Shown here: one piece after another, positions 251-3,014 of the stretch
Numbering within the stretch: position 1 is the first letter of the stretch
Layout: every line of letters starts with the position of its first letter
Virus record (IMG/VR): IMGVR_UViG_3300031760_000017
From: a virus
Length of the DNA: 64,000 nucleotides
Reading direction: 5' to 3' (one strand)
Program-made: the position numbers and the translations under genes
The notes under the pieces: generated by a model
Told to the model about the DNA's origin: nothing
Database searches by the model: none
Seen by the model: the letters and a program-made list of their open reading frames with translations, nothing else

Positions 251-266
251 AAAATATATATAAAGG

Positions 267-281
267 CATATACAGCAAATT
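267..281 (+). repeat. 15-nt direct repeat CATATACAGCAAATT, copy 1. Copy 2 is at 1244-1258. Each copy follows a TATATAA box, so these are possibly paired promoters or processing sites bracketing the tRNA array
   Basis: Exact 15/15 identity at both sites. Upstream contexts are TATATAAAGG and TATATAATAGA. Confidence 0.5.
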
Positions 282-345
282 CTCTTTAAGAGATGTGTTG
301 GTTCAAATCCAACATTTGCCGCATGGGCAGATTGGCGCAATGGTT
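282..345 (+). ncRNA. tRNA-like mini-element: a 6-bp acceptor-like stem (GCAAAT/ATTTGC), a short hairpin (TCTCT-TTA-AGAGA), and a canonical T-arm (TTGG-TTCAAAT-CCAA). It has no D-arm or anticodon arm
   Basis: Manual folding. The T-loop TTCAAAT is tRNA-like but the element is too short to be a tRNA. Confidence 0.3.
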
Positions 346-368
346 GACGCAAGTGACTCGTAATCACT
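325..368 (+). ncRNA. Partial tRNA-like element: acceptor 5' strand, D-arm, and an anticodon stem-loop (AGTGA-CTCGTAA-TCACT, anticodon CGU). No T-arm or 3' acceptor strand follows. Possibly a pseudo-tRNA or part of a larger structured RNA
   Basis: Manual folding. Downstream sequence is AT-rich with no TTCRA motif. Confidence 0.3.
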
Positions 369-395
369 CTATCTTATTAATATGCCTTGTTTTAA

Positions 396-467
396 TGGGG
401 TGTCGCCAAGCGGTAAGGCATAGCACTTTGACTGCTACACACGTTGGTTCGATCCCAACCACCCCAG
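396..467 (+). tRNA. tRNA-Gln (anticodon UUG)
   Basis: Perfect 7-bp acceptor stem (TGGGGTG/CACCCCA). D-arm GCC..GGC. Anticodon stem TAGCA/TGCTA with loop CTTTGAC. T-arm GTTGG-TTCGATC-CCAAC. Confidence 0.8.
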
Positions 468-479
468 CTAAAATTGAAT

Positions 480-948
480 GTAGTATAATGTGAATATAGA
501 CGGCGTGTGCGTGCCTAAGCTCTAAAATCGTCGTGAGGAGCCCTCATGGTAACTGCTTCTATAGCTGAAGGTGCCTACTACATCTATTACAATAAGGTCT
601 AGTCAGCCTGTACACAATGGTGAAATGATATATCCGTGTACCGTACTAAAACGTATTAGGTATTGTAATGGCGTTATGGTTCTACCAATACGTTAAATTG
701 GGGAAATGCAAATGGAACTATTTATTATTAGTTGATTCGTTTAACTTAATAAAATCAATCTTTTTTAAGCAATAGTGCATTATTGCTAATGAACGAATCG
801 TGTATAAAAAAGATTGGATTTTAGAACGATTATATGTTGATTGTTTATTAGAAGATGAGGTGCGGAAGCGGGGGCAACGCAGTACCCATAAATGAATGTC
901 TCGGCGTTGAGTAGTCAACTATTAAACAATAAATGTAGAAATCGTTTC
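480..948 (+). ncRNA. Unassigned non-coding region of about 470 nt inside the tRNA array. GC-rich blocks (about 500-600 and 850-905) flank an AT-rich core. It holds several long hairpins but no canonical tRNA and no ORF. It could be a structured RNA such as a Y-RNA-like or intron-like element
   Basis: No tRNA T-loop motifs and no ORF of 60 aa or more. Local GC is well above the genome background. Hairpins include AGCAATA-GTGCAT-TATTGCT (about 768-787) and GTATTG...CAATAC (about 668-700). Confidence 0.3.
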
Positions 949-1020
949 GCGGGTATCGTATATCGGTTAGTATATTAGCCTTCCAAGCTAAGGGGGTGGG
1001 TTCGATTCCCATTACCCGCT
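949..1020 (+). tRNA. tRNA-Gly (anticodon UCC)
   Basis: Acceptor stem GCGGGTA/TACCCGC is perfect over 7 bp. Anticodon stem TTAGC/GCTAA with loop CTTCCAA. T-arm TGGG-TTCGATT-CCCA. Confidence 0.8.
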
Positions 1021-1049
1021 TAACTCACAAAAGTGAGTAAAGATAAAAA

Positions 1050-1155
1050 TGTGCGGTGGTGGAATAAGTAGACACAGACTATATGAAAAGCGAGGTAGCA
1101 TCTGACTCACACAAATTCTCGCGGAGTCATGTGAGGTGTAAATCCTCACCCGCAC
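1050..1155 (+). ncRNA. A tRNA-like RNA of about 106 nt. A 7-bp acceptor-like outer stem (TGTGCGG/CCGCACA) encloses three hairpins, including TGACTC...GAGTCA and GTGAGG-TGTAAAT-CCTCAC. No canonical anticodon arm could be assigned. Possible intron-containing, class II or suppressor-type tRNA, or another small RNA
   Basis: Manual folding only. The T-loop TGTAAAT is non-canonical. Confidence 0.3.
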
Positions 1156-1162
1156 ATTCTTT

Positions 1163-1236
1163 ATACTTGTAGCTCAGACGGAGAGAGCATCGTCCTTCTA
1201 AGTCGAAAGTCGAGGGTTCGAGTCCCCCCAAGTATA
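1163..1236 (+). tRNA. tRNA-Arg (anticodon UCU)
   Basis: Acceptor stem ATACTTG/CAAGTAT is perfect. D-arm GCTC..GAGC. Anticodon stem TCGTC/GTCGA has one mismatch. Loop CTTCTAA. T-arm with TTCGAGT loop. Confidence 0.7.
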
Positions 1237-1240
1237 TAAT

Positions 1241-1317
1241 AGACATATACAGCAAATTTTTTCAAGAATAAGAAATAGACTTTTAATCTATAATTCTAAC
1301 TCAAAGTATGTCTAGTT
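1241..1317 (+). ncRNA. Atypical tRNA-like element. The terminal stem AGACATA/TATGTCT encloses an anticodon-like stem-loop (ATAGA-CTTTTAA-TCTAT, UUU in the anticodon position) but lacks normal D and T arms. It starts with copy 2 of the 15-nt repeat
   Basis: Manual folding. Confidence 0.25.
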
Positions 1318-1323
1318 TTAATT

Positions 1324-1395
1324 GAGCCAATAGCCAAAGGGTTAAGGCAGAGGGCCGCAACCCCTCGATTATAAGTTCAAATCTTATTTGGCTCT
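1324..1395 (+). tRNA. tRNA-Cys (anticodon GCA). Position 33 is an unusual C
   Basis: Acceptor stem GAGCCAA/TTGGCTC is perfect. Anticodon stem GAGGG/CCCTC with loop CCGCAAC. T-arm ATAAG-TTCAAAT-CTTAT. Confidence 0.7.
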
Positions 1396-1463
1396 TATTG
1401 ATTTTTTATAAAATTTTTAGTATAATATATACATAAGGTTATGAAAATAACCTCAAACAAAGT

Positions 1464-3014
1464 TTGAAAAGAGATAAAAGGAGAACAATTATGAATACTT
1501 TTCTTAATCAGATGGTAAGAGACAATAACATTACTCGTACAGAGAACGGTGGTGTAACTCGCAAGACAACAGAATCTAAGGTGCTTGATATGTTTGCGGT
1601 TGGCGGTGCTTATAGAAACCGTTCTGATGCAGATGTTATTCTTCTATTTAAGAACGCATTTGAGGAAAACCGTGAACTTGCTATGAAGTGTCTTTTCTAT
1701 CTTCGTGATGTTCGTGGTGGACAGGGTGAAAGACGTTTCTTCAGAACAGCTTTCCGCTGGCTTTGCGATAAGCATCCAGAAGTAGCAAAGAGAAATCTTA
1801 ATAATGTAAGTGAGTATGGTCGATGGGATGATCTTATTTATGTAGCTGAAGACACTAAGTGCCAGACTGCCGCATTTAATATCATTAAGCATCAGCTTGC
1901 TCTTGATGTTCAGTGCAAGACTCCATCTCTGCTTGCTAAGTGGCTGCCTTCTCAGAATGCTTCTAATAAAGATACTAAGCGTCTTGGTCATGTGCTTGCA
2001 AATTATCTTCATATGACAAACAAGGAATATCGTAAGACTCTTTCAGTACTGCGTGAGCGCATCAACGTTCTTGAACGCCTGATGAGTGCAAACCGTTGGG
2101 ATGAAATCGAGTTTGATAAGATTCCTTCAAGAGCTGGTATTATTTATCGTAATGCATTTGCTCGTCGCGACATTCTTGCCAAGAGATATGAAGCATTTGC
2201 TAAGAGTTCAGAAACCAAGGTAAATGCAGAAGCTCTGTACCCGCATGATATTGCACATAGAGCTTTTGATTATGGAATGAAGCGAGCTGACATTAATGCT
2301 CCTGAGCGTCTCATGCTTCAGAAGTATTGGGATAACCTTAAGGATTTCTATAATGGAAGAGAAGAGAATGGCATTGCGGTAGTTGATGTTTCTGGTTCTA
2401 TGAGTGGTATTCCTATGGAAGCCGCAGTTTCTATGGGAGCCTATATCGCAGATAAGGCTCACGGACCATTTGCTAATCACTTTATTACTTTCTCAGCTAA
2501 CCCTGAGCTAGTAAGATTTGAAGGTGTTGACATTGTTGATAAGTTCAATCGTTGTGTAAAGGCAAATTGGGGTATGAATACTAACGTTGCGGCGGTATTT
2601 GATATGCTTCTAAATACAGCTAAGAAGAAGCATGTAAAGGTTGAAGATATGCCTACTCGAATTTATATCTTCTCAGATATGGAATTTGATAAGTGCATGA
2701 CTCTTGATCCTAATTACCATGATGAATGGGGTTGGGGTTGGCATTCATGCAAGCATCCTTCTTCAACTAAGGAAGTAAATTCTGACCTTGAGAAGATCAA
2801 GAGAAAGTGGAGTGCTGCTGGTTATCAGATGCCTTCTGTAATCTTCTGGAATCTCAACGCTAGAAATAATCGTATTCCTGCTATCGGCGATGGTTTCAGT
2901 TATGTGAGTGGATTCTCTCCTTCCATGATTGATTCTATCCTTAGCGGTAAGGACGGTTATGACCTCATGCTTGATAAGCTCATGTCTAAGCGTTATGCGG
3001 CGGTTGTTGCATAA
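1464..3014 (+). CDS. Ro60/TROVE-like vWA-domain protein. A DUF2828-type vWA protein is the alternative. The vWA domain has a MIDAS DxSxS motif
   Basis: 516-aa intact ORF with no in-frame TAG. The MIDAS motif is VVDVSGSM with a downstream IFSDME. The C-terminal GFSYVSGFSPSMIDSI resembles the Ro60 motif GMLDMCGFDTGALDVI. A long helical N-terminal domain precedes the vWA domain. GC is higher than in the neighbouring genes. Confidence 0.5.
   Translation: MKRDKRRTIMNTFLNQMVRDNNITRTENGGVTRKTTESKVLDMFAVGGAYRNRSDADVILLFKNAFEENRELAMKCLFYLRDVRGGQGERRFFRTAFRWLCDKHPEVAKRNLNNVSEYGRWDDLIYVAEDTKCQTAAFNIIKHQLALDVQCKTPSLLAKWLPSQNASNKDTKRLGHVLANYLHMTNKEYRKTLSVLRERINVLERLMSANRWDEIEFDKIPSRAGIIYRNAFARRDILAKRYEAFAKSSETKVNAEALYPHDIAHRAFDYGMKRADINAPERLMLQKYWDNLKDFYNGREENGIAVVDVSGSMSGIPMEAAVSMGAYIADKAHGPFANHFITFSANPELVRFEGVDIVDKFNRCVKANWGMNTNVAAVFDMLLNTAKKKHVKVEDMPTRIYIFSDMEFDKCMTLDPNYHDEWGWGWHSCKHPSSTKEVNSDLEKIKRKWSAAGYQMPSVIFWNLNARNNRIPAIGDGFSYVSGFSPSMIDSILSGKDGYDLMLDKLMSKRYAAVVA

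Follow-up and report, generated by a model that had tools for sequence, protein, structure and literature searches.

The first 3.1 kb of the viral DNA analysed here (a stretch of 64,000 nt from the IMG/VR record IMGVR_UViG_3300031760_000017, hereafter the window) comprise a single large gene and, ahead of it, the last part of a tRNA array on the same strand. Four tRNAs are identified here by both ARAGORN and Rfam: tRNA-Gln(UUG) (396..468, + strand), tRNA-Gly (949-1020), tRNA-Arg(UCU) (1162..1237, +) and tRNA-Cys(GCA) (1324..1395, +), the last being the final tRNA ahead of the gene both in the window and in many of its relatives. The gene (1491..3014, +) encodes a 507-aa protein in which DUF2828 is combined with a DUF7788 von Willebrand factor A (vWA) domain carrying a MIDAS (an adhesion site that depends on a metal ion), and which is modelled to have the fold of Ro60. 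Within the array lie two Y-RNA-like small RNAs, E1 (129 nt, 262..390, +), which holds a circularly permuted tRNA-like module, and the shorter E2 (1239..1316, +). We consider it probable that this locus encodes a phage ribonucleoprotein (RNP) of the Ro60/Y-RNA kind. A sequence-only reading of the window had suggested such a Ro/Y-RNA module, and the suggestion is supported by the modelled fold of the protein, the architecture of the RNAs and the conserved synteny, rather than by the TROVE and Y RNA family searches that it had named as checks.

The Ro-like label of the protein family was already known. In the searchable literature, which mentions DUF2828 in plants and a tardigrade only, we found nothing on the RNA family, its linkage to the gene, the permuted-tRNA cargo or the resemblance to Dictyostelium Class I RNAs, and no paper on the fold evidence, RNA partners or tRNA-array linkage of the protein family.

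The DUF2828 protein and its modelled fold

By sequence, the window protein is a full-length member of DUF2828, past the curated cut-offs for both of its domains: hmmscan matches Pfam DUF2828 to the N-terminal part (3e-31, 109.2 bits against a cut-off of 29) and DUF7788 to residues 302-494 (3.5e-48, 164.2 bits against 27.1). PHROGs places the protein in phrog_850, 'RNA-binding protein' (5e-124), and 'Ro-like RNA binding protein', an annotation label only, is the existing SEA-PHAGES name for the family. Homologues were found by tblastn in 698 of 50,697 phage records, including Felix-O1-like, P100/A511-like, Tsamsa-like, KVP40-like and cluster L phages.

From an alignment of 66 sequences (31-83% identity), AlphaFold2 gave a confident model (pLDDT 85.5, pTM 0.85). 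Its N-terminal two-thirds are all-helical and its C-terminal domain is alpha/beta, as the helical and vWA domains read from the sequence had led one to expect. The sole significant Foldseek match of this model is the crystal structure of a 'Trove domain', matched along the whole length (E 9.7e-6), and the modelled protein is arranged like Ro60, with its helical repeats in a ring that a C-terminal vWA domain closes. The MIDAS residues D299-x-S301-x-S303, T364 and D396 (507-aa numbering), of which the DxSxS motif had been recognised earlier, are invariant in 66 homologues. When hhalign was run between a profile of the family and one of 30 true TROVE/vWA_Ro60 proteins, for which Bxz1 gp220 was the seed, the entire vWA domain was aligned (probability 88%, E 3e-6, 157 columns), and the C-terminal VSGFSPS of the window protein was paired with VSGFDSA of true Ro60, the resemblance that the sequence-only reading had pointed out. 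Against one single Ro60 sequence, the MIDAS strand alone was aligned. Judged by its model, the window protein is a Ro60-fold protein of a separate, divergent sequence family. DUF2828 had earlier been put forward as an alternative to a Ro60-like identity; the family name was correct but it is no alternative, because the fold-level match makes DUF2828 a divergent Ro60-fold family.

The open reading frame (ORF) from which a 516-aa protein had been predicted (1464..3014) is sound, but its start has to be moved. It opens with a TTG at 1464, and homologues begin at the ATG at 1491. This ATG is likely the real start, giving 507 aa, because MNTF... is the N-terminus in all 120 closest database homologues and because an AAAGGAG ribosome-binding site lies 8 nt 5' of it. 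Recoding, considered from in-frame stops in relatives, was rejected since these stops sit upstream of the real start codon. In two related loci the DUF2828 gene is split by an insertion past approximately residue 155 (L066, 4001-5705; L073, 2446-4665), where an intron, a mobile element or a frameshift is possible.

Stem-framed small RNAs and their linkage to the gene

A repeat search revealed second copies of positions 264-281 and 381-396, at 1241-1258 and 1307-1322, with a compensatory change between the copies, AGGCATA/TATGCCT in the first and AGACATA/TATGTCT in the second, by which a G-C pair becomes A-U. E1 and E2 were defined as two elements because of these duplicated ends and the change between them. 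The minimum free energy fold of 262-390 has a closing stem and five hairpins. In this fold the 9-bp closing stem of E1 (263-271/380-388) is followed by the unpaired, invariant ACAGCAA (272-278), a small V hairpin (281-293), a canonical T arm with the loop UUCAAAU (297-313), a 7-bp acceptor stem closed by the 5-nt loop GCAUG (314-332), a D arm (335-350) preceded by U and G, and an anticodon-like hairpin with a 7-nt loop (352-368), and the element ends in a GU tail (389-390). A mini-RNA previously delimited at 266-345 is a fragment of E1: its canonical T arm was correctly seen, its boundaries were not, and its 'acceptor-like stem' is the hairpin at 314-332, after which the D arm follows. ARAGORN calls neither half of E1 as a tRNA. 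The Rfam tRNA model (RF00005, cut-off 29) gives 25.6 bits to 326-387, the second half of E1, without a T arm, and 14.6 bits to 255-321. No CCA is encoded in E1. Its anticodon-like triplet (loop 357-361) reads CGU in the window, UCU in L001 and UAU in L034, the remainder of the 129-nt element being ∼97% identical.

E2 is a paralogue of the ends of E1, with a closing stem (1240-1248/1306-1314), ACAGCAA (1249-1255), two small inner hairpins and a 3' GU tail. It is scored at 29.6 bits by a covariance model built from three near-identical E1 copies and has the same layout as many short elements of the relatives. E2 fills the gap between tRNA-Arg, which ends at 1237, and tRNA-Cys, which starts at 1324, and E1 stops at the 5' side of tRNA-Gln, which starts at 396. 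Both are on the strand of the gene, E1 ending 1.1 kb and E2 175 nt upstream of the start codon. Rfam scans of this region, by gathering score and by E value, returned the four tRNAs and sub-threshold noise, with no Y_RNA, YrlA, ROOL or GOLLD.

The conservation of these RNAs was assessed in 80 related IMG/VR loci retrieved via the protein (L numbers). The E1 model finds diverged homologues other than tRNAs at 34-54 bits in L054, L025, L047, L010, L031, L004 and L002, and an element of the Felix-O1-like Escherichia coli phage LinBro at 34.5 bits. True tRNA dimers also score with this model (for example L002 2038-2161) and were filtered out by comparison with ARAGORN. In genuine members, AG, six nucleotides and ACAGCAA on the 5' side and CU(U/A)GU on the 3' side are constant, and the stem varies in sequence yet stays complementary. 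In a test that presupposes no pairing, a perfect 8-bp closing stem was sought 25-200 nt away from each distinct ACAGCAA site and the expectation was obtained by shuffling. On the gene's strand, 76 of 173 sites had such a stem against 9.9 expected; on the opposite strand, 6 of 65 had one against 3.2 expected. With the same amount of DNA considered on either side of the gene, the 80 loci have 78 elements upstream and none downstream.

The tRNA-like interiors are conserved as well. In 14 of 15 tRNA-like elements, the seven nucleotides past the T stem pair with a nearby downstream 7-mer at 6-7 of 7 positions, and after the acceptor hairpin so formed come one or two nucleotides, the first of them U (in two elements a single G instead), and then the D arm. 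An alignment of 14 sequences shows pairing of 97.1% for the T stem with the outer five pairs of the acceptor, as compared with 58.7% after shuffling and 44-55% in slid controls. The covariation score of the T arm with its abutting acceptor hairpin is 1.07 against 0.27 for shuffled alignments, and none of 500 shuffles reached 1.07. By our own mapping, the invariant columns would correspond to tRNA U8, G10, A14, G18/19, G53, T54, Psi55, C56, A58 and C61.

Around these constant parts the interiors vary widely, from ∼35 nt of hairpins to full tRNA-like bodies. Many elements of 50-75 nt have, like E2, no tRNA-like part at all, and the type A elements (L054, L025, L047, L010, L004, LinBro, Faith1 and Tsamsa) have no anticodon arm. 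The frames of L041, L067, L039, L076 and L008 enclose tRNAs called by ARAGORN. A further subtype is a framed, circularly permuted tRNA-Tyr-like RNA with, in order, an anticodon arm (GUA), a long variable arm, a T arm, the 3' strand of the acceptor with an encoded ACCA, a linker of 3-7 nt, the 5' strand of the acceptor and a D arm. It lies directly 5' of the DUF2828 gene in L011-L020 (∼3831-3969), and 2.8-3.5 kb upstream in L033 (285-449) and L070 (1050-1191).

Of 12 phage lineages checked, 10 have such elements next to the DUF2828 gene, namely Listeria, Bacillus, Staphylococcus, Enterococcus, Campylobacter, Felix-O1-like, cyanophage, two mycobacteriophage groups and the gut-type clade of the window. 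In the named phages they are on the same strand and no further than ∼1.8 kb from the gene, most of them less than 1 kb. Elements start ahead of the gene at 6211, 6298 and 6367 in Listeria LP-124 (gene start 6548), at 6245 (tRNA-like type), 6886, 7474 and 7863 in Bacillus Tsamsa (gene start 8007), at 7823 and 7896 in Campylobacter CP81 (gene start 7995) and at 5438 (tRNA-like type) and 5806 in Enterococcus Bill (gene start 5998). They start behind it at 6725, 7280 and 7358 (tRNA-like type) in LinBro (gene end 6377), at 6481, 6533 (tRNA-like type) and 6676 in mycobacteriophage Faith1 (gene end 6431), at 9494 and 9696 in mycobacteriophage AvadaKedavra (gene end 9443) and at 7532, 7609 and 7681 in Staphylococcus S-CoN_Ph12 (gene end 7512). 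Synechococcus B23 has one element on each side of the gene (5998-7473), starting at 5874 and 7813, with the variant UCAGCAA in the latter.

In almost every related locus the gene forms the 3' end of a same-strand tRNA array, and the same is found in LP-124, Tsamsa, CP81 and Bill; in LinBro it stands at the 5' end of the array. No tRNA is annotated near the gene in the Faith1 and AvadaKedavra stretches, and the Staphylococcus phage has a single tRNA ∼2.3 kb downstream of the gene and no adjoining array. That these mycobacteriophage and Staphylococcus loci nevertheless carry two or three elements directly after the gene speaks for a linkage to the gene and not to the tRNAs. An unbiased scan of viral contigs with the pattern AAAGACNNNNACAGCAAA gave 17 matches with a closing stem. 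The gene was present in 5 of 5 stem-bearing loci of at least 9 kb, as against 5 of 105 stem-less matches, and two shorter stem-bearing loci were contigs already known to hold the gene.

Several further features were seen in the related loci. Small 'hypothetical protein' coding sequences overlay framed RNAs in LinBro (L081, 7316-7553, CDS0140/0141) and CP81 (L087, 7861-7998, ORF140) and are probably mis-annotated. In KVP40 (L082) an ACAGCAA at 4974-4980 follows CGACAUUUU, 27 nt 5' of the DUF2828 start codon, and could be a leader or autoregulatory site. A ROOL-like RNA (L084, 5018-5569; 87.4 bits, E 3.5e-16, threshold 99.1) lies in the LP-124 tRNA array just 5' of the gene and the three framed RNAs, and in L022 the gene is directly followed on its 3' side by a match (5560-5633) resembling the c-di-GMP-I-GGC riboswitch (55.2 bits, threshold 59). 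Related arrays also contain suppressor-type tRNAs with the anticodons UUA and CUA (L008 561-635, L009, L031, L042, L052, L063, L078) and phage-encoded transfer-messenger RNAs (L009, L068, L069, L078).

Other parts of the first kilobases of the window fall outside the framed RNAs. The segment at 480-948, previously described as a structured non-coding block, is non-coding, but it is not supported as structured: its folding energy is ordinary (z = -1.5, with 8 of 100 shuffles folding equally well), and it has no Rfam match. A BLAST homologue of 469-948 exists only in L001. Approximately 395 nt of it (∼505-900, between tRNA-Gln and tRNA-Gly) are present in the window and in L001 (91% identical) and precisely missing from L034, the second-closest relative, whose protein is 96% identical to that of the window. 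This stretch is bordered by the direct repeat CGGCGT (505-510, 901-906). The block is a polymorphic indel outside the RNA module. Between tRNA-Gly and tRNA-Arg lies an element (1045-1162) whose 5' end resembles tRNA-Leu in acceptor strand and D arm and whose 3' end carries a T-arm-like hairpin with the non-canonical loop UGUAAAU and a matching acceptor strand. Its middle 50-75 nt are exchanged wholesale in L034, and it has neither an ACAGCAA frame nor an ARAGORN call with or without introns. A promoter-like site for the Ro60-like gene, sigma-70-like TTGATT-17-TATAAT, is found at 1398..1426 (+), and the sequence to which it belongs, TTGATTTTTTATAAAATTTTTAGTATAAT (∼40 nt), recurs many times in all related phages. 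In the window it is followed by the hairpin AAGGUUAUGAAAAUAACCU (1398-1453 for both), and in L054 the same promoter stops exactly at the 5' end of a framed element. Past the gene, 12 nt beyond the stop codon, there is an intrinsic-terminator-like hairpin (3026-3049) with a U tract (3026..3059, +). A megablast of window positions 1-3300 against phage records matched nothing.

A candidate ribonucleoprotein and its rivals

In the reading that we favour, the 507-aa protein would form a Ro60-like ring of helical repeats closed by the vWA/MIDAS domain, and the small RNAs would be co-transcribed with the tRNA array and freed as RNase P and 3'-end processing enzymes excise the flanking tRNAs. RNase P cleavage at the 5' end of tRNA-Gln would set the 3' end of E1, 3' processing of tRNA-Arg would set the 5' end of E2, and RNase P at the 5' end of tRNA-Cys would set the 3' end of E2. 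The protein is predicted to bind the stem that joins 5' (A)AAG to 3' CU(U/A)GU together with the unpaired ACAGCAA, a putative equivalent of the Ro-binding helix and the CGAA bulge in Y RNAs. The interior would serve as a variable module, a permuted YrlA-like tRNA body with an anticodon-like hairpin in E1 and two small hairpins in E2. By analogy with Ro60 and Y RNAs, the RNA may gate the access of the protein to other RNAs, or tether the protein to them and to host factors, for instance polynucleotide phosphorylase, RNase P or the CCA-adding enzyme. The particle could take part in the surveillance, protection or repair of tRNAs during infection, a role suggested by the tRNA arrays that constantly accompany the locus and by the RNA ligase and end-healing genes that often do.

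The genes for RNA repair bear on this proposal. The cassette of RNA ligase, kinase and phosphatase noticed earlier at 33779-36667 was confirmed by Pfam domains and comprises an RNA ligase (PF09414 with a PHA02142 OB domain; 33779-35017, +), a P-loop kinase (35646-36146, +) and a metallophosphoesterase (36146-36667, +). In phage GAP32 a ligase gene of this family lies directly upstream of the DUF2828 gene, and in LP-124 RtcB, an RNA ligase and a phosphoesterase lie just 3' of it. Such neighbours are consistent with the RNA-repair neighbourhood known for Ro60 (PMC7824862). The set in the window may be functionally tied to the Ro60-like module, the case for this being circumstantial.

A number of observations weigh against the proposed RNP. 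The window protein does not match TROVE (PF05731), hmmscan at E≤1 returning only DUF7788, DUF2828, VWA_2 and CorA, and a true phage Ro60 used as control, Bxz1 gp220, matches TROVE at 9.4e-50. The TROVE similarity anticipated from the sequence is accordingly found in the fold, through the Foldseek match and the vWA profile alignment, and not in the sequence. Searches of PDB sequences, whether started from the protein alone or from a profile of 31 sequences, yielded just a generic vWA match (E 0.004) and no Ro60 chain, and the profile-profile run of hhalign aligned the vWA half only, not the helical half. As for the RNAs, the Y_RNA or YrlA covariance match that had been expected upstream of the gene failed to appear, neither model (YrlA, RF02553) having a match at E≤10 in window positions 1-3300 or 255-398, and the phage RNAs carry ACAGCAA, not GNCGAA/CGAA (GNCGAAN0-1G in YrlA), at the equivalent place. 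GAP32 has no element within 6 kb of the gene, and KVP40 has the motif but not a clear closing stem. The linkage to the gene could be partly indirect, as the elements are also regular in tRNA arrays, and a strand test on the frame stems (23 G-U versus 11 A-C) is mildly favourable but confounded by mismatches at stem ends. The analysis shows the protein fold, the architecture of the RNAs with its covariation, and the linkage of gene and RNAs; RNA binding by DUF2828 proteins, the processing route and the biological role are what we infer.

Among the other explanations, the one that survives best, unlikely as we judge it, regards the frames as maturation scaffolds for unusual tRNAs. E1 would then be a circularly permuted, split tRNA gene whose acceptor loop is opened by RNase P and 3' trimming and to which CCA is added, so that a two-piece decoding tRNA is held together by the frame stem, the protein being at most a chaperone. 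A precedent for the processing exists, as YrlA of Mycobacterium smegmatis is cut by RNase P and gains CCA in vivo (PMC4201824). No tRNA arm is missing from E1: its 7-bp acceptor stem directly adjoins the T stem, and U and one further nucleotide precede the D arm. Its 7-nt anticodon-like loop differs among near-identical phages solely at positions 34-35. The tRNA-Tyr-like subtype with its encoded ACCA, GUA anticodon arm and long variable arm, and the frames that enclose ARAGORN tRNAs, point in the same direction. However, most members of the family have no anticodon arm, many have no tRNA-like part, and E1 itself has no encoded CCA. To our knowledge, no bacterial pathway rejoins or uses split tRNAs. 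Since most members are devoid of an anticodon arm, decoding is not the common function of the family; the ACCA-bearing subtype and the variable anticodon keep alive a split-tRNA maturation or tRNA-decoy role for some members.

Somewhat less likely again is that the frames direct the processing of tRNA-array transcripts or their stability, for instance as sites for host or phage endonucleases, and are unrelated to the neighbouring protein, whose gene would simply lie in the same early or tRNA region. The gut-type clade fits this idea, its elements occurring all along the array, as far as 4 kb from the gene, and immediately between tRNAs, and so do the frames that enclose tRNA-like sequences. 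Elsewhere, the genes of Faith1, AvadaKedavra and the Staphylococcus phage lie away from a tRNA array and are still directly followed by their two or three elements, and the elements of the Listeria, Campylobacter and Enterococcus phages cluster in the gap just before the gene, not among the tRNAs. Moreover, the 7-nt motif is invariant across phages of Actinobacteria, Firmicutes, Proteobacteria and cyanobacteria, which argues for a phage-encoded reader, and DUF2828 is the one gene for which all loci were selected and which they share.

The window further encodes a 655-aa Major Vault Protein (MVP) homologue (30774-32741, +; Pfam MVP_shoulder 3.9e-23, Vault_3 8e-8), near which lies a Band7/flotillin gene (28373-29851, +). 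This raises the improbable alternative that the protein and the RNAs are parts of a vault-like particle, in which the Ro60-fold protein would act as TEP1 and the small RNAs as vault RNAs. TROVE domains bind both Y and vault RNAs, and eukaryotic vaults contain a TROVE protein and small RNAs. A preprint on MVP in gut phages sought TEP1 by BLASTp only and found none. On the other hand, MVP homologues occur in only 3 of the 50,697 phage records, all of them huge phages, as compared with 698 for DUF2828, so that the RNP needs no MVP, and in the window the two genes are 28 kb apart. Because of its rarity in phage records, MVP was rejected as a general partner of DUF2828.

That E1 is a mere pair of decayed tRNA genes, sharing its repeat with E2 by chance or as a recombination relic, has next to no chance of being right: the sub-threshold tRNA scores of its two parts and the mimicry of YrlA by tRNA dimers, against which Chen et al. 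warn and which recurs with the E1 model, are outweighed by the same architecture and covarying helices in phages whose proteins are just 30-40% identical, by a closing stem that shifts through compensatory substitutions, and by the large excess of closing stems over expectation.

Relation to Ro60, vaults and Class I RNAs

Particles of Ro60 and Y RNA have been described in animals, in some bacteria and in a few phages that have a recognisable TROVE gene. We compared the phage module with the Ro60/YrlA systems of Salmonella, M. smegmatis, cluster C mycobacteriophages and the Thermus phage phiLo. As with Ro60, the protein is modelled with a helical-repeat ring and a vWA/MIDAS fold, one to several same-strand small RNAs lie within a few kilobases of its gene, and RNA ligase and repair genes are often nearby. 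As in Y RNAs, the ends of these RNAs are joined by a stem beside which a conserved motif is unpaired. The order T arm, closed acceptor stem, D arm is defining for bacterial YrlA (PMC4201824), and E1 has this order together with the tRNA-invariant nucleotides. E1 and E2, and the elements in the 10 of 12 lineages, also lie within ∼4 kb of the gene and on its strand, as YrlA does with respect to the Ro60 gene. Canonical phage Ro60 with neighbouring Y-like RNAs has been documented (PMC4201824; PMC12135203), and the module described here differs from it in several respects. Pfam assigns the protein to DUF2828 and its vWA domain to DUF7788, not to TROVE and vWA_Ro60; E1 has an additional anticodon-like hairpin not found in YrlA; and, unlike known Y RNAs, the phage RNAs are embedded in tRNA arrays, in up to four copies with very varied interiors. 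An element of Faith1 is aligned to the full Rfam YrlA model at 21.7 bits, against a threshold of 69.

The likeness to the vault is that a TROVE-fold protein (as modelled), stem-closed small RNAs and an MVP homologue occur within one genome. Unlike TEP1 of the vault, the DUF2828 protein has no NACHT, WD40 or TIR-like parts, and MVP is missing from almost all other DUF2828 phages.

If the proposed RNP is real, then a far larger set of phages, those of the 698 records, carries a divergent Ro60-fold RNP whose RNA subunits have so far gone unannotated, often under spurious small ORFs. This would give a testable function to a large 'domain of unknown function' family, would account for some of the spacer sequence in phage tRNA arrays that has lacked an explanation, and would offer genetically tractable systems for the function of Ro-type RNPs. 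The permuted tRNA modules, some with CCA and some with a variable anticodon, raise the possibility of split tRNAs or of decoys against tRNA-targeting defences.

A second likeness reaches beyond Ro60. For the mycobacteriophage and Listeria phage elements, cmscan lists RF01414, the Class I RNA of Dictyostelium, among the best matches, at scores that do not reach the gathering score of 41.5 (23.1 bits for Listeria, 18.9 and 14.3 for Faith1; no match for E2). By curated sequence thresholds, the phage module is outside TROVE, YrlA and Class I alike. Class I RNAs are ∼60 nt long, start with AAG, have a short covarying end stem and a variable interior, and end in CUGU; an 11-nt motif, CCUUACAGCAA, adjoins the 5' strand, with C6, C9, A10 and A11 most conserved (PMC7919456). 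The phage elements have the same layout, with 5' (A)AG, a covarying stem, the unpaired ACAGCAA after its 5' strand, a variable interior and 3' CUG(U), and the short phage type has a similar length (∼45-75 nt). The likeness can be seen by comparing DdR-21 of Class I, GUUGACCUUACAGCAA...GUCAACUG, with an element of the Listeria phage, UAGGAAUCUAACAGCAA...GAUUCCUGU. The layout is shared, and so are the nearly invariant C6, C9, A10 and A11, but the U3 of the motif is not kept and its CCUU part is not conserved in phages, and the phage stem has 8-10 bp, not 6. The phage elements also have no Dictyostelium upstream sequence element (DUSE), the promoter located ∼60 nt upstream of Class I genes, and lie in bacterial-type tRNA arrays or behind sigma-70-like promoters. 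The known binder of Class I RNAs is an RRM protein, whereas the candidate partner in phages is DUF2828. A pull-down with DdR-21 recovered four proteins, one of them the uncharacterised DDB_G0281243, which as a candidate DUF2828 member is a lead, not a result.

DUF2828 is described in Pfam as a family of 'eukaryotes and viruses'. Class I RNAs were concluded to be unique to dictyostelids, and the supplement of the same study contains candidates of the same layout that were dismissed, ath_can_1 of Arabidopsis (UGUUUUCAUUACAGCAAUC...GAAAACUG, 40 bits) and cow_can_1 of Capsaspora (GGAACUCCUUACAGCAAUAC...GAGUUCUC) (PMC7919456). With these in mind, we offer a tentative hypothesis, possible in our view though more probably wrong than right, that DUF2828 and the stem-plus-ACAGCAA RNAs constitute one ancient RNP of phages and eukaryotes. 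According to this hypothesis, Class I RNAs would be subunits of the amoeba's own DUF2828 protein, for which DDB_G0281243 is a candidate, and the Arabidopsis and Capsaspora candidates would be real. TROVE-fold RNPs would then have three branches, Ro/Y, TEP1/vault and that of the phages, and in the last of these tRNA-rich phages would have captured permuted tRNA bodies as cargo modules. Class I RNAs are abundant in Dictyostelium and have no known mechanism, and the identity of the motif makes the old question of what binds these RNAs, and what they do, directly testable.

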